Part shown: positions 9,302-35,046 of the stretch, piece by piece
Layout of the letters: the number at the start of each line of letters is the position of its first letter
Position numbering within the stretch: the first letter of the stretch is position 1
IMG/VR virus record: IMGVR_UViG_2599185359_000001
Span: 1-64,000 of that record
DNA: 64,000 bases
Reading direction: 5' to 3' (one strand)
Source of the DNA: a virus
Taxonomy: Duplodnaviria > Caudoviricetes
Notes under the pieces: generated by a model
Seen by the model: the letters and a program-made list of their open reading frames with translations, nothing else
What the model was told of the DNA's origin: nothing
Databases searched by the model: none
Position numbers and translations under genes: made by a program

Positions 9302-9340
9302 AATCAAACCTCAGTAATAGCGTTGGTGCGGTGCGTAGCA

Positions 9341-9368
9341 GGTAGGTGCGCACCGAAGTGCGCACCTT
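9341..9368 (-). terminator. Hairpin AGGTGCGCAC-TTCG-GTGCGCACCT after the 294-aa gene
   Basis: 10-bp stem with UUCG loop; no U-tract, so it may be a stability or processing hairpin. Confidence 0.45.
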
Positions 9369-10260: not shown

Positions 10261-10593
10261 GATAAAGAACCTTTTCGTGAGAAGCTGCGAACCGCTTCGC
10301 AGCACCGAACCGCTTCGGTGAAATCAGTTCTAGTGTGTTCCGACATACACGCAAGCGCTTTTCCGCTTTTTCTGAAAAACCGCAGGAAAGCGCGCTTTTT
10401 GCACGTCGACTACAAGCGTGGTCGTACCAGTGTGCGAGGTTTTTGAGCGCGAATCACCGCGAATCGCTGTGTCGTTTCACACGATTCGCACCGCGCACCG
10501 ATCATGCGATTCGCAGTCGCGGTCACCGCGGCCCCGATTAAGACGAAACCGCGCGCTCGCACGTCACGCGCGCACACGCATAGGCGCCGCGCG

Positions 10594-12825
10594 CCATGGC
10601 ACCCCTACGCCCACGCGCACGCGAGTTCGCAAAATCGCCCATCCCCGAAATCGCCCAAGGACCCGAGCCCAATATGCCCACCGAGCCATACGGATTTTGA
10701 GCCATTCATCATCCGAGCCCATAGAGCTCCATAAGCCCATGGGAGCACCTGGGCACCATGAGCCCCGAAGATCCATGGCACCACCGCGCCCGGCGAGCAC
10801 CATTGGTCCATGGGCATCCATGGGCATGCCGAGATACGCGAGATCCATGGGGTGGTGCGCTCCCGAGGACGCATGGGGGATGAGACCCTCGGGAGCGCTT
10901 GCACCGGGCTCGCCGAAATGGGGAAGCGAGCCCAGGCAATCAGTGAATTTCGTGGATCATGCCGCGATGGCGATGATCTCGATAGCGGGCGCAAGCTGCT
11001 GAATTATTTCCATGAGCGCGCCCATATCGCTCCAGTGACAGCGGATGGATGCACCCCGAGGGCAAACGACCATCTCGAAGGGCATGGGCACGATGGGGGC
11101 GCCGCGCATGGTGGGATGCAGGACCATGATGCCCGAGAACCGCGAGGCGCCGGCTTCGATCCGCCAAGGTTCGCCCATCCGCGCACGCACCATGGACGCG
11201 ACGGCGTGATCGATCTTCACGATTTCCGTGTGATCCACCTCGGGGAGGATGGGCATGCCATAGGTGGCGAGCGTGACGTTCATGGGATCTGGCCTCTTCG
11301 ATTACTCGCGAGCACCGCTGCTCGCTGAAACCGATATGAGCGCATGCGTGCATGGATGCGGGCGGCTTTATGCACCGGCCGCGCGAGCCTCGATGAGCCC
11401 AAGCATCAGGAAAGCCTGGTGCCCATGGACGCCTGGAGACGCCGCACGCCTAGGGAGCCTGGGAACGCCTGAAGCCCATGGGCACGCCTGGCTGCACGAA
11501 ACCCGCGGCGCTAGGGGTCAGCAACGCCGCGGGCTCGACGGGTGTGTGGGATCAGGTGGCTGGGGTGTTGGCCACCACGAGGCTGACAAGGCCGGCGATC
11601 ATGCCGATGGAGGTGATGGTAACGCATGCCAGGTGCGTCTTGAGGGCATTAGCCACGAATGTCCTCCCATGCGGTAATGAAGCCGATGATGGCCGATGCG
11701 CCGAGAAAGATGGGCCAGGTCATTTGGCCATCACCTTGGTGCGCTCACAGGCGAACGATACCATGGCAATATCGCCGGCGGGCTTGATGTGGGCGGGGAC
11801 CCGGTAGAGCGGCTGATTGTTGGTGCGGCGAAGCATGCCCAGGCAGCTGCCCGCAGTCGGCGCGCGATCTATCACATATTCCGTGGGCTGCCCGCCCACC
11901 GTGATCGTCATGACGAGAGCCCAGAACATCAGCGGGTCTTGCCACCGAGGCGGCTCTTGCGTCGCGCCCAGCGGGCGCGGCGAGCGTCGCGATCGGAGGA
12001 ATTGATGCCCGGCGCGATACCGGTGGCGAGGGCGAATGCGATGCTTTCTTCGCGATAGTTGGACATGGTCACCTCTTCATTCTGCGAGCACCGCTGCTCG
12101 CTTGCTGAAGCTGATATGATCGTCCTGTCCGGTGGATGCGGGTGGGTATGCGAGCCTGGTCGACGGGATCTCTTGTCCTCGCCGAGCATCATGGGCGCGG
12201 TGGGCATAGCGGATCCATGGATGCCCATGGGAACGGTGTGCTCTTATTGGCTCAGATACGATCGAAAAGCTCGCCGGGCTCCATGGGCGCGGGGAGGCAT
12301 TGTCCTCATGGGCATATGGGATCGCTGCCGTACATGGAATTTGGGAGCGTGAGGGGCGGGTGCCATGGATGCCCATGGATCTCAGGGCACAAGCAAATGC
12401 CGCGAGAACCCCATGCTCTCGCGGCATTCACCCCTCGGCCAGCGGGAAAAGGAACCGGCTGGCGTCGTTGCGGTCTGGTTTTTATGATCGCCCTTGTGAC
12501 CGCGGGCAAGGGCTATTGGGTCAGAATGAGCGACGGCCGGGTTAGATTGAGTGGTCGCGCCGGAGCTTGTTTAGCTCGTTTTCCTGATCCGTGGTGAGGT
12601 CGTCCGTGCACAGCAGATCATCCGCCTCACTCCTCGCGTCGGAGACTATCTCCTCGATGCGTTCGATCCGCCGCTTGAACTCTGCATCGTCCATTTGCGC
12701 GTGCTCCTTGATGCGCGTTGTCTCGTTGATCTCGGTATAGCGATCGTTCCGGCGGACTAAAGCGGCTTGTTGACGGCATCAAGCTTGGCGAGGGGCGGGA
12801 GGCTATGGGCTCGGGTGACCCATGG
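10594..12825. repeat. CCATGG-dense region (16 copies)
   Basis: Counted directly; three pairs lie exactly 10 bp apart. Confidence 0.85.
10957..12694 (-). CDS. Small hypothetical proteins (10957-11283, 11720-11929, 11929-12066, 12542-12694)
   Basis: SD sequences; two are preceded by AGCGGT hairpins. Confidence 0.55.
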
Positions 12826-13130
12826 AGCGCGTGGATTTAGGTGGGCGTGGGGCTGGATGGGCGCTCCGAGATTTCGGTGCCCGGCCGTGTAGGGCAGAAA
12901 TGACAAAGGGCGTTCGGTTGAAAGTGAGCGCGCGAATTTCCTCGTCCAGCGTCAACCACGAGCTCCATATGCTCCAAGCACTCCATATGCCCGGTGAGAT
13001 CCATGCTTCCCTTACCCCATGAGTACCCATCGCCCCTATGATCCATACGCTCCGATGTGTCCCTAGTGCGTGACCCTTCCTTATGGGTGGACGCCTATAT
13101 GCCTGGTGCCTTTGAACGCCTGGGGAATGC

Positions 13131-15041
13131 CTAGGAAGCCTGTGTATCGGGTTGGCCTAGGTCGTAACCATCGAGATTGGTGGCGATCTCCTCGTGGATC
13201 GACACCTCGCCTTTGTCGATGTGGACGATCAGCGTTTGGTGTTTGCCCGTGGGTGCTTTGATCCGGCCTTTGCTCATGGTGATCTCGACGTCCTTGGCGA
13301 CATAGTCGTTGCATCCGATCGAGATGACGGCTTCTGCGATGCGAATGACGTCCTGGGTGGTGTCGATCGCCTCGGGTGTGGTGACGGTCACGCCGTCTCC
13401 GAGTTTGATGTGGGTCACGGATCAGTCCTCTCCGAGATATGCTGCTGTCGTCGCGAACCTGATGTGCGTGATGACGCGCTCTCTGGTGAGGGCTTCGGTG
13501 CGGCCGAGCTGCCACGGCTCCTCATCGTCCGACTTGGTGCAGAAGAAGGCATGGTTCGCCTTGGCATTACGAGCGTCGATTGCTGCGATGAGCGGCTCGA
13601 CCAGATCGTCGTCCCAGGTTTCCGCGATCCACTCCAACAGGTCAGCCTGACCTTCGAGGGCGATCGCCTTGGCGTTCGGTGTTGCCAGCCAGCTCGCGAA
13701 GTTCGGGCGGGGCTCTGGCTTGGGCGCCTGGTCGCTCACCGCAAAGCTGGAGAGGGAGCGTGGGTCGATCATGGTTATGCCTTTCTCTCGGGGATGTAGC
13801 GCCAGCCCAGGCGTGGGTGCTTCTCGGGGATCAGACGCATGCCGACGAGCTGCTGCGGGTCATCGCAGCCGCGACGCGCCGCCTCATTGTGGATCAGGCG
13901 CAACAGCGTTCCGCGGATCTGAACCTTCTTGCCATTGGCATCCGCGATCAGCTCGCCGAAGCTTGCGTCATGCACCGCCGTGATGGTGACGGGCACCGGC
14001 TCGCTTCCATAACCTGCGGACCGCAGGAGCGGCAGCCTGTCGTGGCGTTCGAGCTCCGCGGCTCGCATAGCCTTGATGCGTTCTAGGGCGCTGCGCATGG
14101 TCACTCTCCCTTCGCGATCCATCTGCGGGCCAGGGTGGTAGCGCCGATGATCAGCCATATCAGCCACAAGGAAGCGCTGGCGACCGCGAGTGCTTTCCAC
14201 GGGATGGTCGCCCGATCCTGCGAAAGCCCGGCCTCGTACTCCTTGATGCAGTCTTCGTAGGTGGGCAAGTCGGCGGTCCACGTCGACTCGAGGCGCGGGT
14301 TGCAGCCGATCCGTTCAAGATCGTTGGCTACTCCCCTCGCGACGTGTTCGCCCGCCATCCACGATCCCGCGAACGCTATGGTGAAATAGGCAGCGGATAG
14401 CGTGGCCGCGAGGCGAGCCCGCTTGGTCTTCAACATTCCCGTCGTCCCCCTGTGTTCTCAAATCGCCCGCGCGATCCTTACGATGGTCTCTTCCCAGGTG
14501 AAGCTGCCATCGCCCTCTTCATGCTGATTTTTGCCGTCTGCCTTGCCCGCGAAGCAGAACTGCTCGACGTGGGCTCGACGCGGAACCTCTACATAGAGGC
14601 TGATCGGGTCACCGGCATAGGCGGCGGCGAGATATTCGACCATGTGGCTCGCGACAAGCCTGGCGTCGTCGGGGTTGCCGTCCAGGCTGAACTCCGCGGC
14701 GAACGCTGGGGAGGCATATGCTTCCATGCCGGGGATCGCCTCATGCTGGCGCCACACCTTGATGATGATCTTGCCCATGGTCAGAACTCGTACTTCTCGG
14801 CCCACCACGCCGTGATCCGCTTCCAGACCTCCGCCGGCTCGATCTCGCTGGCGTTCTCGATCACCAGGTCGGGCAGCGGGCTCATCATCGGATGGATGTC
14901 GAAGATGATCTGGTTACCGCGCCGCTTGGCGGGGACTGGGCACTGGTCGTCGGGCAGGGTGTTGGCTTCGGCCGAGCCGGGCGCGAACTCGCCGAGAAAC
15001 GCACCGGTCATTTGGTTGAAGTAGAGGTAGGTCTTGGCCAT
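13131..15041 (-). CDS. Operon of hypothetical proteins (13131-13418, 13422-13772, 13775-14098, 14101-14436 two-TM, 14458-14778, 14781-15041)
   Basis: Tightly packed same-strand ORFs behind a hairpin/promoter cassette. Confidence 0.7.
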
Positions 15042-15125
15042 CGTCGCTTCCTTTTCATCGAGCACCGCTGCTCGGTGATTTCGGTATGCGCGCTGCCGGT
15101 GATGGATGCGGGTGGGCAGTGATCG

Positions 15126-17317
15126 TCAGAAGCTTGCCCAAAGGGGGTGCGCTTCCATGGAGCTGTGGTCGATAGGCTCGGGCTGCAACTCTTCCAGGTC
15201 GCTCACGCCGATGCGGCTGCGTTCATTGCCGTGGCGATCTGTCCATCCGCACTCCAGCGTCAGCTCCCACTCTCGCGCGTTCGATCGATGGGTGGTTTCG
15301 ATCTGAATGCCGCGGAAGCTGACTATACCGAGGCTGCCGAGCAAGTTCTCGTTCGCCAGCGCCATGCGGGCGTCGTCACGCATTACAATGCGCCACACCG
15401 GGCAGCCCTTTTCACGGGCCAACTGCAGCCCGTCGTCGATCTGCTCCGTCAGGGTGCGGAAGGTCATGTCACTGCCCCATGGCGGCTTCCCATCCCGCTT
15501 TGATGTTGTCGAGGCTCATCAATCAGATACCCTCCCTGACCGGCGGGAAGTAGATGGTGATCGTGTCTTCGTGGGCCGAGAATGCCCAAGCATGATTATT
15601 CCGCACCTCGAAAGGATGCGGCGCGCGATCGCGCTTGTGCGCAATGATGTAAACGGTCGCGGGATCGTAGTTGCGTTCGCTGCACGACAGCTCCACTGCG
15701 TCCAATAGAGCCGTAGTGTTGACGCCGCCATAACCCTGGCCCACCCAATCCATCAGCTCGCCGGTCCCAATCATGCAGACGGCACCTACCAGTGCGGAGG
15801 GGCGCCATCCCGTCTCGGGCGGCTCCAGATCGCGCAACCAATCGGTGAAGTTCGGGCGCGGCGAGGGCGTATTCATTCCGTGGGCTCCTCGTCCGCCTCG
15901 GAGATAGGCGCTTGCTTGATCGGCTCCTCGAAGGCGCAGATATTCAGCTTCACGACCTTCGGCTTGTGCCAGGGCGGCTGCTTGTCAGCGTGCTCCTTCG
16001 CGTCACCATGACACTGGAACCAAAGCGTGCGGTCTGCCCACGCCGTCTGCCCGCTGGTATAGCCTTCGCGGGAAGGGTGTGTGTAGCCGCCCACCGTGTC
16101 GACGAGGTAGATCAGCTTAGGCCGAAACCTGAGCTGGCCTTTGCGAAGGCGTAGCTTTCGTGCCGCCTCCATCAGTTCGGCAATCTTCATCGTTCACCTT
16201 TCCGCACCCACCGTGCTACGAGCAGCACGGGCGTGACGATTAGCCAGATCGCTATCAGCGTGCCGGCGGCGCGCGTGATTGCAAAGTACCAGGCGCGATC
16301 ATTCAGCCATTTCATTCTCTCATCTGCGCCAGCGAGGCAGTCGACGTAACTATCGCCGGGCTGGGGAGAAGTAAGCTGGGTCTCGCACACCGTGCTTATG
16401 AATTGGTCATGCTGGCTCGTCGCCAGATAGCCAGCGAGCCAATACATGGCGCCTATCGCCAGTATGAGATAGGCGCCGGAAAGCGCGATCGCGAGCCGTG
16501 CGCGCCTAGTCTTGAGAGTTATCCCCACGTTTATCCCCTATGCAACTGTGTCACCCATCACACCTGAATTGAAAGTGATCAAGGGCACGCGCTCAACGCC
16601 GAGCGCATCGCAATCGTCCAGATATTGCTGCACGCGCGCCATGGTGACGTCGTGCTCGTGACGGCACTGCGCCTGGATGACGCACCCGAACCCATACTGT
16701 TCTGCGTCCTTGATGAGCGCCGCCACCCCGCGCTCCTCGAAGCCGAAGTCGCCGGAGATATCTTGCAGGTCGCCGTTGGGTGCCCAGGATGCCGTGATGA
16801 CGTCGGAGCTCGCGACGAAGCCGAAGCAGGGCCAGTGGATCGCGAACGCCATGATGTCGGCGGCGGGGATGAAGGCCGAGAGGCCCCCATCGGTATGTCT
16901 GGTGACCAGCATCGGTCAGGCCGCCAGGCTGTCGGCATAGGCGTTGACCGGCGCCAACGCAGCCTCGAGGCTGCAGGCATAGTCGCTGATCACGTCGTCG
17001 CCACCATTGCCATAGACGAACCAGACGAAGCCGACGCGCTTGCCCTCGGCGTCGAAGGCGATCAGGCGATCATCATCCGTGGTGTTCATAGCCGCCATGA
17101 TCTCGCCGATCGAGGTGGACCGGGTGACAGTGGTCTCCTCGCCATCATAGACGCTCACCGAGTAGCCGGCGTCCAGAAGCGCCTGGGCCGCCTTGCGAGC
17201 AATCTTGCCCTCGGTCTCGATGCGCTTGATGAGGCGCTTGTAGCCCGCGTCGGTGGGGTCGTAGTCGCTGCCGCTCTTGATGCGATCGATCGACTGGCTG
17301 AAACCCGACTTGTCCAT
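15126..17317 (-). CDS. Operon of hypothetical proteins (15126-15467 ends HPLWASF; 15523-15876; 15873-16190; 16187-16528 two-TM; 16538-16912; 16916-17317)
   Basis: Tightly packed ORFs behind a hairpin/promoter cassette. Confidence 0.7.
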
Positions 17318-17402
17318 GTGATGTGTCCTTTCGTCACCGCACCGCTGCGGTGATTCTCTTTTCGCATGCGCTGCCGGTGGATGCGGGTGGGCTCGATGAG
17401 CC

Positions 17403-18991
17403 TCAGAAGGTCCCGTAGAGGGGGTTGCCCTCCATGGCAGCGAGCTCGGCCTGGCGCGCGTGCCGGTCACACGCGGCGTCGGATCGCAGCTTGGCGATGG
17501 GCAGCAGCTGGTCGGCCGGGCACGCGTCCTCGCCGAACCAGTTCTCCAGGCGCGTCAGCGTGCCCTCGGACATGCCGTAGACTTTCGCAGCGCGTTCCAA
17601 GGCGTCATCTAGGCATTCGAAATCCTCGTAGACGTGGACGGTGTCGCCGCCGACCTCTTCGAGCGAAGCGTCCCAGTGCAGACGGAAGCCGCCATCGGGG
17701 ATAGGCATGGTCAGTCCTTGATAAGCCCAGCTGCCCGCATCTCCGCAAGGCTAGGCATGTGTTCGTTCCCGCGGGACGCGCTGGGCTCCAGGTGCAGGAT
17801 CAGCTTGGTCAGCGGGTCGACGCCATCGTCGGTGACGGAGCGGATGACGACGCGATCGGGAGCCATGGAAACCAGCTGCACGCCGGCATGTCGCAGGATC
17901 TGGATCATCCGCGGGTTGTTGAGCGGAGGGTAGGTTCGGGCGCCCATCAGATGCACACCGCCTGGTCGAGCTCGAAGCGGTTGTACGCTCGCAGCATGTA
18001 CTCGCGCCATTCCAGGCTGGCGTCCGGCCAAGCCTTCACCTTCAGGTCGTCGAAGAAGATGCTGGCGACACCACCGTCCGTCTGGCCGAGCAGCAGCTGG
18101 ATGGGGGCAACTGCCTTGTCCAGGTTATCGACCTGGCATGATTGGGTGATCTGGTCGAACAAGGTCATGGCTCAGGCGGCCTCACCCATCACGGTGATCT
18201 CCGCGCCGCGATCCGTGGCAGCGATCGCGTCGAGCTCTTCCAAGAGCGTCGCGATTGCCTCCAGATCCGCGTCGGTGTTCTTGCCGCCAACGTCGACGTG
18301 GTTGTCGCTCGCGCCCTCGAGACCGATGGTGATACAGCCTGCCAGCAGCTGCAGCTGCCGATCGTTGAGCATGAAGCTCGCCATGTTCGTTTCCTTCTCT
18401 GTCACCGCACCGCTGCGGTAAAACCTATATGACCGAGCAAGCGTGCGGATGCGGGTGGGCAGTCATGCGGCGAGCAAGGGCACGCACTCGCCAGTCCTGA
18501 AGAGGTGCATTCGCTGCCAGATGGTGAAATTGCCATCGAGCTCCCCGGCGAGGATCTGGGCTACGGTCGACTCCAGCTCCCTGATCCAGGCCTTGGGGTC
18601 GTTGCACCGGGTCTCACCCGACCGGATGCTGGCGATCAGCCGGCGCTCGGGCTCGGCCGCGAACTGTCGCGCAGCCTGGCGATCGTCGAAGCCGGGGACG
18701 GGACGGGCTGCGCTTGCCATGTCAGCAGGTTGCGATGCGGACCCGGGTATCGCCGGTCGGGCGATGAAGGATGCCCGGCGTATTTTCGATGATGCGGACC
18801 TTGTAGCCCGCGCGCCGGTACTTGATCGCGAGGACGCCGGCCTGCCGGCGGGCTTCGTTTTCCTGCATGACGCCGATGCGACCGGTGCTGCACACGCCCG
18901 GCGGATCGATGATGATGGTCTGGACGGGGCGCGGGGCCGCGTCGAGCGGGACCGGCAGGGCCGGGGCGAGCAGAAGGGCGAGGAAAAGCAT
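17403..18991 (-). CDS. Small hypothetical proteins (17403-17708 ends NPLYGTF; 17711-17947; 17947-18168; 18172-18384; 18463-18720; 18722-18991 with signal-like N-terminus)
   Basis: Coupled ORFs with SD sequences. Confidence 0.65.
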
Positions 18992-19034
18992 GGGCGGCTC
19001 CTTTGGCCTAGAGGGATACGAATGAAGGGAAGGG

Positions 19035-19450
19035 GGAGCGTTCGCCTACTCGCGACAGACCAGGCGCCACTCTTGGCCCTGCTCCAGTCCTTTCGTGCCT
19101 ACTTGCTCCCCAGCTGACCGAGTGCTCGCGCGCTCATCCTCGGCCCTTGGTGCCCGTTGGGCTTTATTTCCTCTTGCGAGGCGTGTGCGTTTCGTTGTGC
19201 ACCGCTGGCCTTGTGCGGTTGGCTCAGCCGGCCGATCTACGTGTCGGCGTCGCTATCGTGATGCATTCGCGCTCCTTCGTCGCCTACCGCGATGTGAGAA
19301 TTGCCTCTTTTCAAACCCTGGCGCGCGTCGTGCGGCGCTGGACCCAATGTCGCCGGTCAGCTCGGGGAGCGGGCAGTTTTCGGGGATGCCAGCCCGATCT
19401 CTATCGCTTCATCATCGTTCCTTTCGTCAGCGCGTTGTTTGCTTCACTGC
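19035..19450 (-). ncRNA. Candidate large structured non-coding RNA
   Basis: Long-range helix 19105-19120 with 19354-19370, GNRA hairpin, AGUA/GAA loop-E-like motif, upstream sigma70-like promoter; no credible ORF. Confidence 0.55.
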
Positions 19451-19620
19451 GTTGGTGTGTGTTGTCTAGCACAGCTTTTGTGTCGCACAAGTGGCGTTTT
19501 GGTGCTCATCAGCCCGATGATGGTTGACAGAAAACGCCTCGCTGCCGTCAACAACCGACCAAGAACCGTCAACCTAGGGCGGAGTAAGTTATTGAAAACA
19601 AACGTCTATGTTGTGGCCGC

Positions 19621-20322
19621 TCACCTGAACACCACATTCGGGAAGATCCGCTTGAGAGCGGTGCGCCAGTGCGCATCCGTGTAGCTGTGGTGCTGCAGGG
19701 CGCGATAGGCCCCGCTGTCGTGTAGCGATCGATAGGCTTCCGACCCTTCAGTGACCTTGGCTGGCCACGTACGGCGCAGGCCAAGATCCTGCACGATCAG
19801 ATTGGTGGCGATCTGGACGTGGTCGTCGGTGATCTTCGCCATGCTCACTTGTCGCCGAAGCCGATGCGCAGGCGCAGCGTGCCGTGGATACGCTCGGTGC
19901 GCTCGACCAGGCGATCGGGCTGCTCGCCGCGCACCATCTTCTTCCAGTCGCGATTGCGGATGCCCGAGTTCGCACCGGTGGGGATCTTGTCGACCGTACC
20001 GCCCTTGCTTGCGAACAGCGCCACCGCTTCGGCGGTAGCGAGAGACATGCGTGCCATCTGAAAACCTCATCGTTGCCGAGCACCGCTGCTCGGTGATTTG
20101 GTTGTGCGCTCCGATGCGCGCGGATGCGGCTGGCTTTCGCGGTTATTATGCGGCGAGTGATGCGCTGTGCTGAGCTGTCAGGCGCCCCAGCTGGGCGGCG
20201 ATCTCCAGCATGGTGTCCAAGTCCTCAACTGTGGCCGCCTCATCGTAGGCACGCCAAAGAGCGTCGCGCGCTGCGAAGCAGGTGGGCCGGCGTTGGGGGA
20301 AGGGGATGATTGCGACGCTCAC
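19621..20322 (-). CDS. Three small hypothetical proteins (19621-19842, 19845-20057, 20146-20322)
   Basis: SD sequences; the last is divergent from the repressor. Confidence 0.55.
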
Positions 20323-20355
20323 TCGACTCGACTCCGCTTTGATGAAGCCAATATG

Positions 20356-20415
20356 TGCGGTCCACAGACCGCATTTGTCAACGGGTGTCCCGCATTTTGC
20401 GGTTGATAGACCGCG
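20356..20415. promoter_or_regulatory. Divergent control region: two GCGGT-N6-ACCGC operators around a leftward TTGACA (20376-20381)
   Basis: TGCGGTCcacaGACCGCA and GCGGTtgatagACCGC. Confidence 0.6.
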
Positions 20416-20437
20416 GCGGGAACGATACACGCGGGGC

Positions 20438-21151: not shown

Positions 21152-21275
21152 GCGATTTTAAGCGCTTCTGAGCGCGTCTAACGCGACGCGCGGTCGCACT
21201 ACCTAGAGCGCTCTAAACGCGCTGAGCGAGCGCGAGAGAGCGATTTAGAGCATATCGCGCTCGCTAGTGCAGAAC
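21148..21275. repeat. GG/CC-free, helically periodic element homologous (inverted) to 35098-35173; strong-gyrase-site-like
   Basis: Direct alignment of the two copies; lies between convergent genes. Confidence 0.6.
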
Positions 21276-21292
21276 CCTGCGAGCGCGATCGT

Positions 21293-24924: not shown

Positions 24925-25002
24925 TTCGTTCCCTTTCGATGCGCACCGCTGCGCTGCATCGTTCTTGTGCATCATGTGATTGGTGGATGCGGCTGGCTTA
25001 GG

Positions 25003-26365
25003 TCAGAAGGTGCCCCACAGGGGGTTCGCCTCGATCTCATCCTGCGCGCGCTCATCTGCGAGCTTGGCGTCGATGGCCGCCTGGGCAGCCTTCTCGCGGC
25101 GTTCCCTCAAGGCCTGGTGCGCTTGGCGCCGAGCCTCCTCAATCTTGCGGAGCGCCTCGACCGCCTTGCTTTCCATCTCCCCAAGTGGCGTTCGCGGCCC
25201 ATCCTCGTTCATGAGGTTCGCGTGATGCGAGAGCCATGGCGTGCCGTCTGCCTTGTAGTAGATCGGGTTCCCGCCCTGACCATCGGCCTTGACCATGAAG
25301 CGTACACCCTGGCCGAACTGCTGCCGGAAGTGGTCGGTGATATCTCGACCGATACGGGTAGGCGACAGCGGGACGACCTTGCCGTCGTCATCGAGCATCG
25401 CGACGAGATGGACAGAAGGGCCATAGTAGCCACCGTCTGAGTCCTGCCGCGGCACCATCCTGAGCGGGGCTTCCCAGTCGATCATTGGCCGGCGCTCCGC
25501 ATGCCTGCGCCGAGCTTCTTCCACTCAAGCTCACCGCGGCGGTTGCGAACCTGGACCATGCCAGGCTCGGGCGCGAGTTCACGCTTGCCCTCGGGAGGCT
25601 TGCGGTAGCGCCCGCCGCGCTCGAAGTGGCTGCGGTCGCGGGGAGGTGCCGCTCGATCGATGAAAGGGTGCGCGTTGAACCACTCGTCATGGATCACGAT
25701 CATCTTGCGTGCGGCCCTGGCAGCGTGACCCGCTTGCTCGGCGGCTGCACGCAATGCGTGATTGAGGAGCATGAACGACTTGCCCTGCTGGCGCGCGCCG
25801 ACAATTGCGATGGCTCGATGAATACCGTCGACCGGCACGTGCGGGGCGATGATAGTAGGCTCCATCAGAACATTCCGAACATCGGGTTGTCGAGCATGGC
25901 GGCCTGCTCTGCTGCGGCAGCTTCCTCCGCCTCCAGCTGGGCGACGGTGATCTCGACGAGCTTGGGCGCTCCGTTGATCGGCGTCAGACGCGGCCACACG
26001 TAGAGATACCGCTGCCCAGATGCCGTGACGAGTCTGAGCTTGGTCCCGCGATCGAAGATCCGGCCGGCGATCGGGTTCGTGGCGTCAGGGAAGCGCAGCA
26101 GCGGCATCTGCGTGTTGACGATCCTCGGAGCGCCTGGCCCGCGCGCTGCGTCGAGCGTGCCATCGGGATTGACCATGACAGGCTTGGTAGTGCTGAGCTT
26201 CGGCATGGTCGCGGCGTTCCAGCCGCGGGGCGTGTCGATCCCGACGACCATGTAGGCGGTGAGCTCCTCGCCGTCGCACACCCGGCGCCACTCGGTCGGG
26301 TCAAGCTCGCACGCGGTGCCGTCGTCCCACTCGATCGGCATCCGCCAGTTCAGAACAGTCCCCAC
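25003..26365 (-). CDS. Hypothetical proteins: 25003-25485 (ends NPLWGTF), 25482-25865 (GARQQGKS P-loop-like remnant), 25865-26365 (ends NPMFGMF)
   Basis: Coupled ORFs. Confidence 0.7.
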
Positions 26366-26673
26366 AGGGCGCTTCCTTCCATTTCAGTTGTGTCGATTGG
26401 CGCAGGCGGCGGGGCAGGGGCGCCGACAGCTGCCTGAACGCCCGCGTCAAGCATGATCGCGAGCGCCTCGTAGGTGATGACCTGGGCGCCGCGGGCGGCT
26501 GCCGTCTTCGCCTTGACGGTATTCGTGCGCGACGCGACCAGGATGTCGCAGTTGTCGGCGGTGTCCGTGTAGACGTAGCCCGCATCCTCGATCATCTTGA
26601 TCCAGTCAGGCCGGTGCACCTGGACATTGTTCTTCATGCCCTTGCCGGTGAGGGCGATCCGCTTCCATCCCAT
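26350..26673 (-). CDS. Stand-alone BRCT-like domain protein ending SALWGLF
   Basis: IALTG...R..WIKMIEDAG...CDILVA...K..A...GAQVITYE pattern matches ligase-type BRCT. Confidence 0.65.
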   Translation of the reverse strand: MGWKRIALTGKGMKNNVQVHRPDWIKMIEDAGYVYTDTADNCDILVASRTNTVKAKTAAARGAQVITYEALAIMLDAGVQAAVGAPAPPPAPIDTTEMEGSALWGLF

Positions 26674-27978
26674 CAGAACATCCCCCAAAGCGGGCTGCTG
26701 GCGTTGGCGCGCTCGGTCTCCTCGCGCGCTCGTCGAGCCCACGGCGTCTCGACCTCTTCCTCTTCCACGAAGAGATCCTCGGTCGGATCGAAGGTCTCGA
26801 TCTTGCCCCAGGGGCAGCCTTCATCCACCGGGCTCCCGAGAGCGCCGTAGACAAAGCCGGTCCCGATCGCGTCAGGGCGCGTGTCGAGGCGCTGGCCGCC
26901 GGTGACATACAGCCGGCGACGCGTGCGCACGGTTCGGATCGGAAGCGAGAAGTCGATCATCGTTATTCGTCCAGCTCGGGGAGCTCAGCGCCGTCGAGGA
27001 TCGTGCCGAGCTCCGGTTCGCGCGCATCGAGGAACAGCGCAGCATCGAGCACCGCCTGGGAGCCGAAGCCCTCCATGCTCTCAAGCCGCAGACATTCCGC
27101 TTCGATCGCTTCCTTGGCGCCAGCGCGCGCGAGATTCTCCGCCTGTGCAGGCGTGTCGGCTTCGATCGTCGCCGTGATGTAGCGGCGGCAGTTGAACGCA
27201 TAGGTGACGGTGAACTCCGCCATCAGAACTGCGCCATTTGGGAGTAGCGCGGATCGAGCGCTTCGGGCGCGCGATTGGTGGGCGCTGCGATTGCCGCCTG
27301 GGCCGGCGTGAGCTGCTTGGGTCGCGACATCTGAATGGCGATGGCAGCAGTCCGAGCGAACTTGAATTGGCGTCCGGTGCTCTCGCACACGCCGTCAATC
27401 GGATACTTCGGCCTGCTCGGAGACACGCCGGTGAACCGGTAGCGTTTGCCCAGGCTCGTAAACACGAGCCCATAGTCGCTGCCCGCCAGGCCGAGGGACC
27501 GACCGTTGACGTCGATCAAGCGGCGCGCGGCGTCATCTGCCGCAGTCGTGTCGGCCGAGGACGCGACCAGCGAGAGGGTGAGGCTGTGCGCGCCTAACTG
27601 ACCGCCCTTGACCTCGAACTTCAGCCCATGCCGCTGCCCGAGCTCCGCGAGCTCGGCGACCACGTCAGCCGAAAGCGCGCGGTGGCCGGTCTTGTTGAAA
27701 TCTTTGAACATCGAACATCCTTCTCGTCTACGGTCACCGCTGACCGCATGTGTGTTATTCACCATATCTAGCAGGCGTGCGAATGGCTTCTGTTACGGTG
27801 CTTCGCCATCCACGGTGTCTTGCTCAGCGGCTTGGACCAGGAACTCTCCGTGGCTGGCGCAACGGCCTTTGAAGATGGGTCCGTCGTCATCGATATCGAC
27901 CGGTTCGCCAGTCTCCAGGCGAGCGCCACATTTAGGGCACGCGAATGGCACGTCGTAGAAGACGAGGATCTCGAGCAT
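26673..27978 (-). CDS. Hypothetical proteins (26673-26960 ends SPLWGMF; 26963-27223; 27223-27711; 27793-27978 Zn-ribbon)
   Basis: Coupled ORFs. Confidence 0.65.
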
Positions 27979-28223
27979 CAGGCGACGATCGCCGTTGAGG
28001 GAAAGGGGCCGAGGACCTCGAACTTGTCGGCCGGCGCGATCAGCGAAAGCGTGCGGCCATTTTCCCAGTTTACGCCGATGTGCCAGGTGCCATCGAACCT
28101 CGTGCAGTCCGTGACCATCGTCACTTCGCCTTCGGTCCCGGGGTCAATGGGGTTGGGGTCCTTGCCCATCTGGATCAATCGAATGCGCTGCCCGAGCATA
28201 ACGGGCGCCGTGTTGTCGGTCAT
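27978..28223 (-). CDS. DUF4314-like small beta protein
   Basis: GQRIRLIQM..DP..PGTEGEV...VNWENGRTLSLI...DKF. Confidence 0.6.
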   Translation of the reverse strand: MTDNTAPVMLGQRIRLIQMGKDPNPIDPGTEGEVTMVTDCTRFDGTWHIGVNWENGRTLSLIAPADKFEVLGPFPSTAIVA

Positions 28224-28312
28224 TGGTGCTGCCTCGCTTCGCGGTCACCGCTGACCGCATGTGTGTTGCTAACCACACGTTGCGATTCGCGCAAGAGGGC
28301 TGTGCTTCGGGC

Positions 28313-28341
28313 AAAAAGAAAGGCCGGGATCGCTCCCGGCC
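28313..28341 (-). terminator. Rho-independent terminator
   Basis: GGCCGGGA-GCGA-TCCCGGCC followed by TTTCTTTTT on the minus strand. Confidence 0.8.
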
Positions 28342-28538
28342 ACTGACTTCAACGCTGAAGGCGTTCACTTCTGGGACTCGTGGTCCTTCACGAAGTTGAG
28401 CCGCGGCTTCTTTCGTCCGACGAAGGCCGCCGTAGCCCCGTAAACGACAACCGCCGCCAGCACGCCGGCGAGGAACCCGCCGAGATGGAAATACTGCATG
28501 GCTTATGAGTTCCCCGATGGATAACAGGCCGATCGCGC

Positions 28539-29766
28539 TCAGTTGCGCGTCTCGTTGTTCATGATGTCGGCCAAGACCACCGTGAGAATCGGGAAGGCGA
28601 CGAAGATGCAAAACAACGTTGCGACAACACCGAGAACGAAAGAAATAGAAAGTGCGAGCATGTGTCCCCCTGTTGAACTGTGAAATTCTACAGTCGTTAT
28701 CGACCTTGTTAGCATGACTAGCAATCGGCTAATTGCGATCATTCACTGAACGGCGTCTCGGCATTTACTAAAGCCATGGGGACGGACGCGACCAACATGC
28801 AGGCAGCATAGATACCTAACGGCCAAACGGGACCGCCGTGCAACACAAGCCAAGCAGAGTGGATCATCATGCCGGCGGTCGCCAGCACGAGTGCGAATGA
28901 GGAAATAGCGGCGATCAAATCTCGCAAAACAAGCCCTTAACGTAGCATCGACTAGATGATGCTTACGTTAACTGCAACAAAATATTGCAGTCATGAAATG
29001 GGTTTGTGTGGCTTCTTTACGAGGTGTCCCGCAATGGCATAGCCCTCGGGCGAGTGCGAGAGGACGCCGGAGTGCCCGGCATTCAGAACATGCGCCAGCT
29101 CATGCGTGGGGCCGAAGTCGCCGATCACCTCGAACGTCTCCCCAGCGAGCGCCTTTTCCGTAACGTCAGCGAAGCGGCGATACTGCTGCGCGCGCCGAAG
29201 GTGCTTCACGCTCTCGGCGATCAGCAATGCCTCGGACACGTCTTCTGCGACGATGCAGAGCCGCTTGTAGGATCGGTTCCAGACCACAAAAAGTCGCCGC
29301 AAGTGTGCCCCCAAGTCGTCGATTTGCTCCGATTCGGGAGCCTGGTCCAGCTGCGTTGTAACATGATGCAGCGCCATGCCTAGAAACGTGCCATTCATAC
29401 GCGGCCACTCGCACACCGCGGAGAGCCTGTCGTCAAGCCGTCGATTCGATAGTGATCGTAGGCGCCGAAGCGCCGCTCATTGGTCATTTGCCCTCCCTGT
29501 GCGCATCGCGCGCTTGCATGTGTGCTATCACGCACCTGCAATCGATGCGCAAGCTGGATCGACTTAACACCAATGCTTTACAGGGAGGTCTTCAGATAGC
29601 TACGCATCTGGGCTCGCGACGGCGCGGGCGCTGCTCGGTTCACCTCGCGTTCAGCGTTCGCGATGAAAGCTTCGCGGCTGGCGCCCTGTAGCGGATCGGC
29701 CAAGCACGAAATAGCAGCGCGCAAAATTGCGCGCTGCTCGAGGGTTTTTGATGCGTCGTTGCCCAT
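28539..29766 (-). CDS. Lower-GC stretch with two small membrane proteins (28539-~28661, 28739-28927) and hypothetical proteins (28991-~29416, 29578-29766)
   Basis: Hydrophobic ORFs and visibly AT-richer DNA. Confidence 0.45.
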
Positions 29767-29799
29767 GGTCCCATGGCTACGAGCGCTCTGACTGGTTCG

Positions 29800-32700
29800 T
29801 CAATCGGTGGACTGGTCCGACTCCGCTGTCTTTGCGGTCATCTGTTCCATGGCCGCGAGCATCAGCATGCCCAGGCCCTGCTCGACAGATCGCGACCCGG
29901 GAGTCCACGAGTAGACGTGCTTCGCGAACGCGCCCCATCCATTCGTACCAGCGATCTCGCCAAGGCGACCGATCGCGGCCGAGAGAATGGCTGGCAGCGC
30001 CGCGACGTCGAGCTCGAGGATCTCGGCGCCCAGGTCTCGCTTGGGTGCCGTGGGTTGCTCGCCGGGTGGCGTCCACCCCAGCTTGCGCGCAACGGACTCG
30101 AAGCGCTCCAGCTGGGCCGCGCGCATTTTGGAGGGGTCCGGCTCTGTCGTGCGCGGCGCTTCCTCGATCGCTGGCGAAGGTGGCGCGCTTTCTTCCGTCG
30201 TCGGGCCGACGGCAAAGGAAGACCACCGATCATTGAGCCACTGGATCAGCTCGGGCTTGTTGGTCGGAACCTCGATCGTCTCGAAGCCCGCGCCGCCCTG
30301 GGCAGCCTTTGCGTCGGCTTGCGTGCCGCTCCAGATGCGGGAGAGGGAGAGATAGAGCTTCATTCCTCCCGGTCCCCCTCCTTCTCGTCGTCGTGGTTGC
30401 CCTTCGCGCGCTGCAGGAGCTGATCGAGATCCGTCACGCCCGCATCGCGCCGCGCGAGGTGGAGAAGGTTGCAAATCAGATCGCCGATTCGGGTCTCCAG
30501 GTCTTCCACGTCATCCGCGTTGCCGAGGTAGACTTGAGCGTCGAATGCCTCCTGCGCGGTTCGTGCCCACTCAGCGCGATCGGCGTTGGTGGGTCCGGTG
30601 GTCAAGCCCATCATTTCTCCTCCTCGACTTCGCTCTCGCCATCGACGTCGAAGGTGCCGGTGCTGTCCAGGACGAGCGCAGCCTCGCCGAACTCCTTCAG
30701 CTGGTCCGAATAGCCCCGGATGTAACTCCCAGTGGGCGACAGGTTCTCGACGAATAGGTCGGCGGCAGCGCGGGCAGAGGCTTCGTCAGGAGCCTCCACA
30801 GCCACGCTGATAAACGCCTTCACGTCCACATTGTAGCGGGGCATCAGCGATCCTTCTCAGTGGGCAGTTGAGCGTCGCCACCTTCGAGGATCTCGATGAT
30901 GGCGGCATAGTCAAACACGTTGGCGGTAAGCTCGAGCCGTTCCAGCTCAGCATGATAGGCGGCGATCCGCTCAAGGCGATCGGCGGCTACGCAGGTCGCT
31001 GCTATGGCATCATCGACGGAGGCCTGACATTCATCCGCATCCGTGTAGATGTCGCCCGTGCTCGCGTTGCGGAGCTCGGCTGCGAGCTGCGGAATATCGC
31101 TCATGCCGACACCCGCGCCAGGTCGCGTGCCTTGAGGTCCAGCGAGCGCGCCTTCAGCTGCTCGTAGGTCTTCTCCGTGTCTTCGACGGCGTGGCGGGTC
31201 AGCAGCAGCGAGAGCCCCGCCTCTGCTCCGAGCGACTGTGCGCGGCGCAAGCAGTCCAGCAGCATCCCGACGCGCTCTTCCTTCTGGAAGGCGTCGAGCG
31301 TCGCCGGGGTCAGCGGCTCGGCGTCGGCCGGGATCAGGTGATGCTGCATCCAGTCGATACCATCGTGGTCGGTGAACATCGTCGCGCCGGCGATCTCGAC
31401 GGTCTCGATCGCGTCCCAGAACATCTCGGTGCCCGAGCCGTCATGCTCGAAGCCACATGCTTCATCGGGGGTGAAGACGACACCTGCCGCGCCGGGGACA
31501 AGCTCCTGTGTCCCCCGGATCTCGGTGCCGTTCGGCGCTTTCAATTCGCTCATAGTCTGCTCCTCATTGCTGAGTGTGTTATTCACAACATGCGGAAGGC
31601 ATGCGGGCGGCTTCGGTGCGCTGATGCAGGAACCTCACGTTCTTCTCAGCGCCCTGGGTGGAGATGATCGCCGCGCGGACCTTGTCGGTTGCTTGGCGCG
31701 CGTCGGCGAGCTTGAGGAGGTCGCGGGCTTCCTTCAGCAGAGAGTGGGCGCGCTCGACAGCATGGACGCGATCAAGCGAAGCCTTCTTCACCCTCGTCCT
31801 CCTCGGTCAAGGGCCCGGTGGTCACCTCGATGGCGTGGACCATCCACTCCTGACATTCGCCAGAGCCCTCTTCGGACATCGTCACGTCGTCGGGGCAAGA
31901 CGAGTCGAACTCGCATGCCATCAGCGCCGCAATCTCTCTGGCGTGCTGTGGACTGGAAGCTTCGATCACCCTCGTTACGCGGTCGACCTGGATGACCTCG
32001 CGTTCAAAATCGATCTGGAAACGGGCCATTATCTGGCACTCCCTTTCCGTTGCGGCTCTACGATGATGCTGGCGATGGCGTCGGCCGTGGCGAACAACCC
32101 GTCTTCGGTGCGGGTAACCACGAGCCGAACCTGCCGACCCTTGAAGTGCGTCAGCGTTCGCGCGTCGTCCGCGTTCACAGATAGCTGGCTCCAGTCGGCG
32201 CCGGTGATTACGAGCCCGGTCAGGCTGGCCAGCTCAAGCCGTCCACTGAGAACGGCTTGCTGGCCGTCGCGGAGATCGAGCCAGTCGATATGTCCGCCGA
32301 TCTTCGGTAGGTCGCTCACGCGGCACCCGCCAAATTGTCGTTGCTCGCCACCGGCACTACGCCGGTCGGAGTGAGGCAGCGCAGACCGGACTCGCCGACG
32401 AACGTTCTGACCTTAAAGCCGCGCCCATAGTCACGAACGATTTCGCCGAAGATCAAGCCCCAGAGGTAGTAGAGCATATCGCCTCCTTGTTGTGCATGTT
32501 GGTATACACCGACGCAGCACGCAAGTCGGGTGGCGATTGACCACCTCGACCGCAGTTTACTGAGCTCCGAGCCGCTTCATCACCTCGTCCGCGCGGCACT
32601 TGCTCTCGCCGCCGCTGAAGATCGAGGCGCACGGATCGCGCCGAGATTCCATATAGTTGAAGGCGAGGAAGGCGACGATTGCGATCGCCGCCAGCAGCCA

Positions 32701-34026
32701 GGCCGTCTGTTGCCCGCGCGTCATTTCCTTCCGCTCGGGTGCGGGGCCGCCGCGGCCGAACATCAGCCGGTGCAGCAGTCCGCGGTCGTTGCGCCGATCC
32801 ATCGTAAGCTCCTCAGTGAAGAGCCCCACATAGACGCGGCGCCGCGCGGAAGGAAAGGGCACGTCAGCCATCGTCGAGCGCATCGAACTCGCGCAAACGG
32901 CGGGCGACGCGGCGATCTCGGCGGCGATCGGGATTGGCGAGGGGCCGGAACGATGCGGCCATCGGGCGTCGGTTGGTCAGGGGAGCCTCCAGTTGCTGTT
33001 GCATCATTCGTAGATCCTGTTCGTCAGATTGTCGGGTGGGTTAACTGTCGTCGCGGGTAGGGCGCGAGCGGACATGCACGGCGAGGATGTCGTCGGGGTC
33101 GACGATCAGGAAGCCGGCGTTCCGTTCAAGGGTGAGCTCGAGGGCGAAGCCCTTGTTGAGGATCGCGGATACGCGCTGCAGATCGGCGATGCCGCGGATC
33201 GCGATCGCCGGCTTCTCGCCGGCGGCGATTGCTGCTTGCGCGCGCTGGATCTTGTAGGTGCTGGCGGTCTTCACGGTTCGTCCTCGATGATGTCTTGGGC
33301 ATTGAACTTGCTGGGCTCGTCACGCTCGCTGCCCTTGGCGAACACGACGGTGTCGGTCTCGTGAATCTCGAGACTCGCTCGGACGTCCCAGCGCGGGTGG
33401 TAGAAGTCGGGTGCGCCCCAGATGCGAACCGCCGTCGTGTGCTCGTCGCCTCGGAATCCTACGAAATGCAGGGCAGGACGGACTATGCCTGGCGGCGCTT
33501 GAAGCGCGGCTTGCTGCCGTCTGGGTTTGGCGGGCTGAATGGGCACTTGTTCTTTCTCTGGTGCTTCCACCAGCTCCAGCCACAACGGGCGCAGGTGTTG
33601 GTGGCCATCAGTTGCCCTGCTCCAGAAGGCGAAACATTCGCTTCAGCTTGCGGCGGTCGTAGTTGCCGGTGCGCATCATGCGCACCCACATGCGGCTCGA
33701 CCGCAGCTCACCGCGCCACAGCTTGAGCAGTGTCGGATTGGTGATCACCAATGTGTCGCCCGGCTGAGGCAGGCTGTCGAGAATGGCGTTAATACGCTCG
33801 AACGTGAGGCCGCTGCCGTCACATGCCGTTGTAATCGTAGGCATCAGCTGCGGACCTCCAAGCCCATGACCCGCAAAAGGTGCGCTTTCGCGAGAAGGAA
33901 AATCCTATCTATCTCAGCCCAGTCGTCGGGGTGCGCAGCGCCCTTGAAGGCGTGATCGCGTGCCGCGCGCTCGAAGCGGGTCACCGCTCCCAGTCGACGA
34001 CGGCGCTCCTTCGCGTCCATCACCAC
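29800..34026 (-). CDS. Run of small hypothetical proteins (29800-30363, 30360-30614, 30611-30844, 30844-31104, 31101-31553, 31579-31791, 31772-32029, 32029-32319, 32557-32802, 33041-33274, 33271-~33585, 33608-33844, 33844-34026)
   Basis: Overlapping stop/start coupling on the minus strand. Confidence 0.65.
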
Positions 34027-34343
34027 AAATCCTCGGAGAAAAGCCCGGGGAAACTGGATCCCGACTTCCGGTTGGCCGGATCCACCTGGCCGGCGGCAAC
34101 CGCGATCTCCAGCGCCTCCGCGCGTCCGACATAGCGGCCGATCGAAGTCGTGAAGCCTTGATCATCGCCGCCTGTGCCGTGCCCGAGAATGTCGAAGCTG
34201 GGGTGCAGCAAGGTGTGGTGCCGCGCCGGTGGCGGTGCGCTTATGGTCAGGAAGTCGGGATAGGGCTTCGCGCAATCATGTTCGCGCTTGGCCCAATGAT
34301 CGGGTACACGAACCCTAATTGCCGCCGCGACGATCGTTTCCAT
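34020..34343 (-). CDS. Phage hypothetical protein (RHH...QGFTTS.GRYVGR.EA...LFSEDLW type)
   Basis: Motif pattern familiar from phage hypothetical proteins. Confidence 0.7.
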   Translation of the reverse strand: METIVAAAIRVRVPDHWAKREHDCAKPYPDFLTISAPPPARHHTLLHPSFDILGHGTGGDDQGFTTSIGRYVGRAEALEIAVAAGQVDPANRKSGSSFPGLFSEDLW

Positions 34344-34945
34344 CAGAACATCCCCCAAAGCGGGCTGCTCTCCAGCACGGCAGTCTGCTTCTCGGTCAGC
34401 GGCTCGTTCTTGCCGACAGCAGGCGGCGAGCCGGCGAAGGCTTTCGCGCACGCGTCGGCAGCATCCTTGCTCTCCCAGAGCTTGCCGGGCACGACGACGC
34501 GCCCGGTGGGCAGATGCAGCGTGGTGCTGCTCGTGCCGCGGTCGAAGAACACCTGGACGGTCTTGTCGCGCCAAACAGCGCGGCGCCGACCTGTGGTGAC
34601 GTCTTGCGGCAGCAGGCAAAGGGTCTCGAACTGCGCGCCACGGGTACCCTGCGGGCCGATGCCACACAGGGAGATGAGCTTCTCGGGATCAGGGCGGCGA
34701 AGGTTCGCGCCGGTCTCCCAATCGTTCTTCGGCAGCAGACCGTTCCAGGTCTTCGCGAACAGCCAGTCGCCCTTGCTCTGCTTGATCAGGCGGAAGTGGT
34801 GCCCGTTGCGATTGACGAACACGATCGGGCAATCCTGCCAGCGGTCATCGGCATCGAAGTGGAAGATGTGGATGTCGTTGGCCAGCGAGACCACCGCGGG
34901 CTCGCCGCGCTGTGCAACGAAGTCGGTTACGGACTGCAGGTCCAT
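34343..34945 (-). CDS. Hypothetical protein ending SPLWGMF
   Basis: SD AAGGAG, hairpin and promoter upstream. Confidence 0.75.
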   Translation of the reverse strand: MDLQSVTDFVAQRGEPAVVSLANDIHIFHFDADDRWQDCPIVFVNRNGHHFRLIKQSKGDWLFAKTWNGLLPKNDWETGANLRRPDPEKLISLCGIGPQGTRGAQFETLCLLPQDVTTGRRRAVWRDKTVQVFFDRGTSSTTLHLPTGRVVVPGKLWESKDAADACAKAFAGSPPAVGKNEPLTEKQTAVLESSPLWGMF

Positions 34946-35046
34946 GAGAATCTCCTTGTGCGAGCACCGCTGCTCGCGTTGTGTGTGTCACCTAGCACAG
35001 TCTCAGCGTCGCGCAAGTGGGTTCTTTCGGTGCGTGTTCGCGCCGG

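Follow-up and report, generated by a model that had tools for sequence, protein, structure and literature searches.

The 64,000-nucleotide (nt) stretch of viral DNA analysed here (the window; positions 1 to 64,000 of IMG/VR virus record IMGVR_UViG_2599185359_000001) carries a family of small hairpins in which perfectly paired, variable stems enclose the invariant loop AGCGGU, each copy standing in the leader of a minus-strand gene. The hairpin is almost certainly a real, selected element. We propose, with a probability of roughly 50%, that it is a 5′-terminal mRNA tag that would shield the transcript 5′ end and dock a sequence-specific reader for the control of translation or mRNA stability; this reading rests on sequence comparison. 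No description of an AGCGGU leader hairpin was found in Rfam or in the literature searched, and the element looks like a so far undescribed control tag shared by a set of phage mRNAs.

The original prediction had placed 13 hairpins with perfect stems and the loop AGCGGT on the minus strand, and all 13 were confirmed. The window contains 52 AGCGGT words, of which 17 are on the minus strand in the 10–35 kb stretch. Thirteen of these 17 are flanked by at least four perfect pairs (stems of 4–7 bp), against none of the seven on the plus strand of the same stretch (17976–34840); the chance expectation for this stretch and strand is ~0.04 such hairpins. Counting both strands of the 4.77-Mb genome, 30 hairpins of this kind exist: the 13 of the stretch 10284–34977, and 17 more, every one of which falls within a long open reading frame (ORF) and has no Shine-Dalgarno or start context. 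A covariance model scored the sites in the window at 22.6–32.1 bits (12 are listed, and the thirteenth overlaps one of them). The next-best match, at 16.8 bits, lies inside the coding sequence of a gp32-like protein, and there are therefore no loop-variant copies. A comparison with Rfam release 15 gave no match, whether the window was scanned at gathering thresholds or positions 9000–36000 at E-values up to 5.

The hairpins belong to twelve promoter–leader cassettes, which are given below together with a sibling promoter that has no hairpin (aa, amino acids; G301, a related phage contig described further on).

34943–35016, minus strand: cassette 1; hexamer TTGCGC at 35011–35016, hairpin 34960–34977 (stem GCGAGC), ATG 34943–34945; gene for a 200-aa ORFan.
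28221–28294, minus strand: cassette 2; hexamer TTGCGC at 28289–28294, hairpin 28241–28258 (GCGGTC), ATG 28221–28223; gene for an 81-aa DUF4314 protein; preceded by an intrinsic terminator at 28322–28341.
27709–27783, minus strand: cassette 3; hexamer TTCGCA at 27778–27783, hairpin 27729–27748 (five Watson-Crick pairs, G.U, U-A), ATG 27709–27711; gene for a 162-aa protein with a weak HicB-like PHROG match.
24922–24993, minus strand: cassette 4; hexamer GCCGCA at 24988–24993, hairpin 24941–24954 (GCGC, 4 bp; 6 bp in the G301 orthologue), ATG 24922–24924.
23679–23752, minus strand: cassette 5; hexamer CCCGCA at 23747–23752, hairpin 23700–23715 (CGGTC), ATG 23679–23681.
20055–20130, minus strand: cassette 6; hexamer GCCGCA at 20125–20130, hairpin 20076–20093 (CCGAGC), ATG 20055–20057; divergent from a gene for an S24 CI-like repressor (20282–21151, plus strand).
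18382–18455, minus strand: cassette 7; hexamer CCCGCA at 18450–18455, hairpin 18402–18421 (ACCGC, U.G, U-A), ATG 18382–18384.
17315–17387, minus strand: cassette 8; hexamer CCCGCA at 17382–17387, hairpin 17334–17353 (TCACCGC), ATG 17315–17317.
15039–15112, minus strand: cassette 9; hexamer CCCGCA at 15107–15112, hairpin 15059–15074 (CGAGC), ATG 15039–15041.
12064–12142, minus strand: cassette 10; hexamer CCCGCA at 12137–12142, hairpin 12084–12101 (GCGAGC), ATG 12064–12066.
11281–11362, minus strand: cassette 11; hexamer CCCGCA at 11357–11362, hairpin 11308–11325 (GCGAGC), ATG 11281–11283.
10258–10354, minus strand: cassette 12; hexamer TTGCGT at 10349–10354, tandem hairpins 10303–10320 (CACCGA) and 10284–10303 (GCTGCGA), both A-U-closed, ATG 10258–10260; gene for a 294-aa protein conserved in relatives. 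Base 10303 is shared by the two hairpins, so that the second has 6 or 7 pairs.
31554–31611, minus strand: hairpin-less sibling promoter of class B (GCCGCCCGCATGC ... GAATAAC); the orthologous gene in G301 has a hairpin.

Every hairpin is embedded in the same order of elements: an upstream hexamer, a −10-like box, the dinucleotide CA, the hairpin, a purine-rich Shine-Dalgarno sequence and ATG. The hexamers fall into class A (sigma70-like TTGCGC or TTGCGT) and class B (CCCGCA, GCCGCA or TTCGCA within the longer word (A)GCC(A)CCCGCATCC). Among the 32 cassettes from the window and its relatives in which a hexamer was located (four further cassettes have no locatable one), 25 belong to class B and seven to class A. 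The hexamer starts 34–39 nt ahead of the first paired base in 30 of the 32, and 41–43 nt ahead of the loop start in 25. The −10-like box (CATATC, AATAAC, CACAAC or TAGAAC) follows ~17 nt after the hexamer, and the stem begins ~6–8 nt past that box, or 11 nt past it in two copies. CA, the usual pyrimidine-purine context of a transcription start, borders the stem on its 5′ side in 31 of 38 copies, and CACAC forms the 5′ flank in several class A and two class B cassettes.

On the downstream side, a purine block serving as the Shine-Dalgarno sequence (GAAAGG, AGAAGG or GGAGG) begins 4–6 nt after the stem. Over all copies the loop ends 18–32 nt, mostly 20–28 nt, before the start codon (48 nt for the upstream member of the tandem). 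In the window the distances are 20–30 nt from the loop end and 13–24 nt from the stem end, the latter in agreement with the original estimate that the proximal copy lies about 16–25 nt before a start codon. In predicted folds the hairpin forms, the Shine-Dalgarno sequence stays open in most leaders, and the A and U of the loop pair to leave a GCGG tetraloop.

We infer the promoter activity of the cassettes from their conservation and position. With the hexamer at the −35 position, a transcript would begin 0–4 nt before the stem and carry a leader of ~40 nt, and because the hexamer-to-stem spacing is fixed at 34–39 nt, the hairpin appears, on balance, to form the extreme 5′ end of the message. 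The same hairpin follows promoters of both classes, and is thus independent of how initiation is specified. Two other functions for this position were considered and rejected. A sigma-dependent pause element does not fit, AGCGGT being unlike the −10-like boxes of these promoters. An intrinsic terminator was rejected as well: the sense strand has no U tract, the 3′ flank is purine-rich (a T count of 1–4 in 38 at positions 3–10 past the stem), the terminator scan does not call the hairpins, and only the antisense strand of a few copies is terminator-like.

A loose pattern scan (hexamer, gap and loop core) listed more than 100 loci, none of those listed with a real copy; the pattern is too unspecific. 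As a separate observation, GAATC (GANTC, a CcrM-type site) lies directly 5′ of the stem, at the predicted start, in at least eight copies (17354–17358 in the window, and many in the related contigs G301, G302 and G303).

Pattern scans and other searches of relatives located 26 further copies, in the same type of cassette, on six uncultured contigs from related phages. G301 (109 kb, 98% complete) has seven, including one duplicated by the terminal repeat, and these form a one-strand cluster that spans the contig ends; G302 has ten on a single strand within 13 kb, G303 four, L190 three, L240 two and L178 one. The relatives examined are fragments. No copies were found in G304, a closer relative by its replication genes (gp32 70% identical; 61% complete), in the isolates RHEph10, BUCTxx99 and nickie, or in four viral contigs with distant homologues of the gene behind the hairpin at 17341, and we conclude from these absences that the element marks a narrow clade. 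A gp32-like query of 300 genomes from the host's own family found no relatives.

None of the six loop bases varies in the 39 copies, which come from seven phage genomes or contigs and show 24 distinct perfect 5′ arms. In a seven-pair model 88% of cells pair, compared with 50% in shuffles and 22–49% when the partners are slid by 1–3 columns, and the covariation score is 0.84 against 0.17; the copies were gathered by requiring 3–4 flanking pairs, which makes the inner pairs true by construction and leaves only pairs 5–7 and the enrichment statistics free of collection bias. Pairs 5 and 6, which were not required at collection, form in 36 and 30 of 38 rows. Variation of the stem extends to orthologous genes: the orthologues of one gene have stems CCGAGC, GGTCAGC and TCACCGC under the same loop, and those of a second gene GCGC, CAGCGC and ATCAGC. 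The claim that structure and apex are conserved through compensatory stem changes is supported by the 26 new copies in relatives, with stems not seen before.

These stems also bear on the idea that recombination multiplied one junction sequence and gene conversion kept the copies uniform, the hairpin itself having no function. Cassettes that mark module boundaries in a mosaic arm of ORFans would suit such a history, as would copies with common flanks, for example those at 28247 and 27736. Gene conversion would homogenise the stems too, yet 24 of them pair under an identical loop, also at orthologous genes, and we regard a passive repeat as very improbable.

The hairpin behaves as an optional, portable module within its cassette. 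In the G301 orthologue of the gene at 31554–31611 it sits cleanly between CA and the Shine-Dalgarno sequence; the same promoter occurs with the hairpin in G301 and without it in the window, and the hairpin is therefore optional. At least two more promoter-like sites of the arm, at 32478–32556 and 19455–19490 (both minus strand), have no AGCGGT hairpin. About a third of the arm genes have homologues in the examined parts of the relatives, in shuffled gene order, and nucleotide homology between the window and G301 stops at or within cassettes. Shuffled order and homology ends together indicate that the cassettes behave as module junctions, as PeSLs do.

PeSLs, the promoter–stem-loop cassettes of T4-type phages, had been named as the established analogue. 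In RB49 and phi1 the stem-loop of a PeSL is set either between the two promoter boxes (−35 and −10) or across the −10 box; it is rich in polyG/polyC and terminates upstream transcription (Arbiol et al. 2010; PMC2839356). The parallel holds for the genomic role: co-oriented composites of promoter, stem-loop and Shine-Dalgarno sequence precede small ORFans in a hyperplastic arm, at module boundaries and in shuffled order. As to the strong sigma70-like early promoter of PeSL cassettes, hexamers of the TTGCGC type are present in 7/32 cassettes here and of the CCCGCA type in 25/32, and the consensus scan calls none of them. The parallel fails for the anatomy, that is, for the position of the stem-loop and its terminator function, since the hairpins described here start at about +1, have no U tract, carry an invariant loop on variable stems and abut the Shine-Dalgarno sequence. 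The promoter classes differ too, as does the type of phage, here a temperate one that encodes DnaE.

Whether the hairpin acts as RNA or as DNA can be approached through its mismatches. When each stem is read outward from the loop, its first non-Watson-Crick position is succeeded by a Watson-Crick pair in six of eight cases if it is G.U and in one of ten if it is A.C (six of 21 for other mismatches); this difference (Fisher one-sided p ~0.009) comes from 18 cases among related sequences. Sense-strand G.U tolerance, co-orientation with genes, a constant distance to the ribosome-binding site and the occurrence behind two promoter classes lead us to favour a transcript-level element that acts after initiation, and we consider it likely that the hairpin works as sense-strand RNA in the leader. 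As to the RNA signal at the transcript 5′ end put forward in the original prediction, promoter–hairpin geometry, G.U tolerance, Shine-Dalgarno coupling and the copies in relatives all support it, with both the action as RNA and the 5′-terminal position being predictions.

An extruded DNA hairpin, the other option raised at the outset, is disfavoured by the same data, with six helix-internal G.U pairs against one C.A. More broadly, the element could act as DNA if an extruded or single-stranded hairpin served as an N4-type promoter or as an attC- or REP-like recombination site, or if the duplex were bound by a protein. The early promoters of N4 are indeed DNA hairpins, and the cassettes are recombination junctions, at which homology between the window and G301 ends and gene order is shuffled. 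N4 hairpin promoters have a 3-nt loop upstream of the start, as opposed to the 6-nt loop found here, and a PF00940 single-subunit RNA polymerase was not matched in the genome, in a search run without a positive control. A duplex site would conserve its arms rather than covary them. That hairpins and genes always share an orientation, and that the distance to the Shine-Dalgarno sequence and ATG is constant, points to the transcript, as does the excess of helix-internal G.U over A.C on the sense strand. The hairpin is also far smaller than an attC site; attC- and REP-like sites were rejected on size and Shine-Dalgarno coupling. Overall, we give a DNA-level element very little weight. A Chi-like reading (AGCGG is the Chi sequence of Bacillus AddAB) was likewise rejected, as it would account neither for the stems nor for the position in the leader.

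In the mechanism that we propose, transcription would start within ~0–4 nt of a 4–8 bp stem capped by AGCGGU, or by a GCGG tetraloop closed by A-U. The stem at the 5′ end would block 5′-end-dependent decay, which involves RppH and the 5′ sensor of RNase E; a 5′-terminal stem-loop is an established mRNA stabiliser (review PMC3997798, citing Emory et al. 1992). The invariant loop would be the docking site of a sequence-specific reader, either protein or RNA and probably phage-encoded, a role suggested because the loop is fixed and the stems are freely replaced. Bound 4–6 nt upstream of the Shine-Dalgarno sequence, the reader could occlude or recruit the 30S subunit or alter the life of the mRNA, and could in this way co-regulate twelve accessory-gene transcription units, much as T4 RegA or the coat-protein operators do. 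Nuclease shield and translational operator are, of the options first listed, the two that fit best.

Alternatively, the hairpin might stabilise the message on its own, with no reader at all. It would be a cap-like structure protecting the triphosphate end from RppH and RNase E, its loop fixed for some intrinsic reason such as folding kinetics, the A-U-closed GCGG or a requirement placed on the initially transcribed DNA around +7 to +12. The predicted +1 position and the 0–4 nt overhang fit the classical requirement for such a stabiliser (PMC3997798). That no reader was found and that the hairpin module is optional also suit this idea. Stability alone hardly explains a loop that is invariant in 39 of 39 copies from seven phages when every stem position varies. 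GCGG is not known as an extra-stable tetraloop, and no DNA constraint at +7 to +12 is known for bacterial RNA polymerase. The E. coli ompA and papA leaders and the T7 phi10 leader work by their structure only, and no loop is invariant across that family (PMC3997798), unlike the six loop bases fixed in the 39 copies here, for which the 5′-terminal position is itself predicted. We therefore rate a purely autonomous stabiliser as unlikely, though it is the strongest of the competing explanations.

The hairpin could instead act during transcription, as a nascent boxB- or put-like signal that loads an antitermination or processivity factor onto RNA polymerase in each accessory operon. A promoter-proximal hairpin with a sequence-specific loop and a variable stem follows the logic of boxB in the lambda nut sites, where loop identity and pairing matter and stem sequence does not, and the copies stand at the front of operons with as many as ~six genes. 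The RfaH ops element also holds a GCGGT core, which may be coincidence. Lambda boxB itself has a 5-bp stem, a GNRA-like pentaloop, two or three copies, a boxA and the arginine-rich N protein that overrides terminators, and these companions were not found here: the loop is not of the pentaloop type, there are 13 copies, and the flanks contain no conserved boxA-like word. Among six intrinsic-terminator candidates on the transcribed strand in 20 kb, only that at 28322–28341 is well formed, and it lies upstream of a cassette and not within an operon. Antitermination would not require the fixed 4–6 nt spacing to the Shine-Dalgarno sequence. The boxB-like option of the original prediction thus fits poorly in loop type, copy number, terminators (about one well-formed) and factor, no N-like or NusG-like protein having been found (in the prophage, no NusG/RfaH paralog), and we judge it improbable.

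Returning to the shielding tag with a docked reader, several points weigh against it. An autonomous stabiliser needs no reader, and loop invariance is the only argument for one; we see the existence of a sequence-specific reader as an even question. Searches of the genome found no member of the RegA, ProQ/FinO or CsrA families, no reader was found among the nearly all-ORFan genes of the arm, and no NusG paralog was found in the prophage. A simple E. coli-type sigma70 consensus scan calls none of the cassette promoters. To these come the collection bias of the inner pairs and the 18 related cases behind the G.U comparison, both described above.

No host leader carries the motif, which favours a reader encoded by the phage. 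Taken one step further, AGCGGU may be the operator of a dedicated phage-encoded RNA-binding regulator, a protein of a new family or a phage RNA, that switches the whole accessory arm post-transcriptionally, the portable tag enrolling newly acquired genes at once; we put this forward tentatively, as less probable than the existence of a reader as such. The nearest parallels in regulatory logic are T4 RegA and the coat-protein operators of RNA phages, in which one factor recognises a short RNA signal by the ribosome-binding site of many early messages (T4 review PMC3014915). The geometry fits, with the hairpin 4–6 nt from the Shine-Dalgarno sequence. RegA sites differ in being unstructured and in overlapping the AUG.

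The 294-aa protein behind the tandem hairpins (9376–10260, minus strand) is a weak candidate for the reader. It belongs to no known family and is 47–58% identical in three relatives, being conserved in G301, G302 and L190 and not found in G303 or G304; homologues were located at L190:1929–2792, L148:331–981 and L021:76–249. In L190, too, no other large gene of the arm stands between it and the shared end sequence. The leader of this gene has only degenerate hairpin relics in G301, and one of its two hairpins has decayed in L190. A 49-aa arginine-rich ORF (9152–9301, minus strand; 31% Arg+Lys) was considered as a reader and rejected, as it is not conserved in relatives. Complementary ACCGCU words on the transcribed strand gave no sign of a partner RNA: those examined (19657 and 9191) are coding or loop-less, and the rest appear scattered. 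GCGGUG resembles the extended Shine-Dalgarno sequence GAGGUG, a resemblance that is unproven.

A further comparison is offered by the start-associated sequences (SAS) of Cluster K mycobacteriophages, a 13-nt linear motif that includes the Shine-Dalgarno AGGAG and lies 3–7 nt from the start codon, and by the extended form (ESAS), an inverted repeat of 17 bp whose arms are conserved (Pope et al. 2011; PMC3203893). Like the present hairpins, SAS and ESAS are repeated leader motifs in a single orientation, confined to the non-structural half of the genome, placed before unrelated genes, conserved from one subcluster to the next, missing from the host and without an assigned function. They differ in that our invariant word stands in a loop 18–32 nt before the start codon and that the arms vary.

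If the hairpin is read by a factor, it would define a post-transcriptional regulon in a group of temperate alphaproteobacterial phages for which no such regulon has been described, and a 20-nt bait with a clean loop-mutant control would offer a direct means of capturing a new RNA-binding protein or RNA. The compact and portable promoter–leader module could serve sphingomonads as an expression part. Beside PeSLs, the cassettes would also be a second mechanism in which regulatory repeats structure the shuffling of gene modules.

The window corresponds to positions 25307–89306 of contig 16 of a 4.77-Mb assembly and is contained in a region of ~100 kb with lower G+C content (63% versus 67%) within this chromosomal contig. 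It encodes a DnaE-UDG polymerase, a gp32-like single-stranded DNA-binding protein, RecA/UvsX-like and Mre11/Rad50-like proteins, a ribonucleotide reductase and ThyX. The polymerase is 36–42% identical to those of Rhizobium phage RHEph10, Stenotrophomonas phage BUCTxx99, Pseudomonas phage nickie and SSU5-like phages. All hairpins lie within one arm (~9.1–35 kb), which holds ~60 small minus-strand genes, nearly all ORFans, according to crude gene calls made within this analysis. Family matches in the arm are limited to DUF4314, a weak HicB-like match, a few PHROGs of unknown function, DUF7942, a DUF4942-methyltransferase and an S24-peptidase repressor of the CI type. The last is encoded by the sole plus-strand gene of the arm, that at 20282–21151, whose 289-aa product has an S24 peptidase domain (LexA/CI type) and is probably the prophage repressor. 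The 505-aa DUF4942 and methyltransferase protein (21973–23490, minus strand), 62% identical in G301, is among the few conserved products of the arm.

Some minor observations concern the promoters. Just past the window end, a sigma70 region-4 match (G000:C16:90448–90603, minus strand) lies in a 476-aa open frame of the prophage; as the sole sigma-like domain of the element, it is a candidate reader of the CCCGCATCC promoter word. Several ORFs upstream of class B promoters (~24995–25030, 17395–17430 and 15120–15150, minus strand) end in NPLWGTF*, NPLYGTF* and HPLWASF*, and the DNA of these tails forms CCC(CC)-N3-5-GGG(G) mini-hairpins followed by CTTCTGA. The common "C-terminal tag" may thus be the translation of a nucleic-acid element borne by the cassette, possibly a weak terminator. 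The hairpin-less site at 19455–19490 heads an ORF-free stretch of ~450 nt that contains an unpaired CAGCGGTGC at 19201.

At the end of the arm, a 9-bp hairpin capped by UUCG lies downstream of the gene for the 294-aa protein (9340–9365, minus strand), and a strong intrinsic terminator follows at 9090–9125 (minus strand), whose 10-nt loop also begins with AGCGGT. Beyond the arm, the word GGATGCCGCC..TCAG.C.G recurs in the window (~8925–8950), in L190 (~3270–3300) and in L148 (~1150–1180), and this GGATGCCGCC word may be a phage end or the core of an attachment site.

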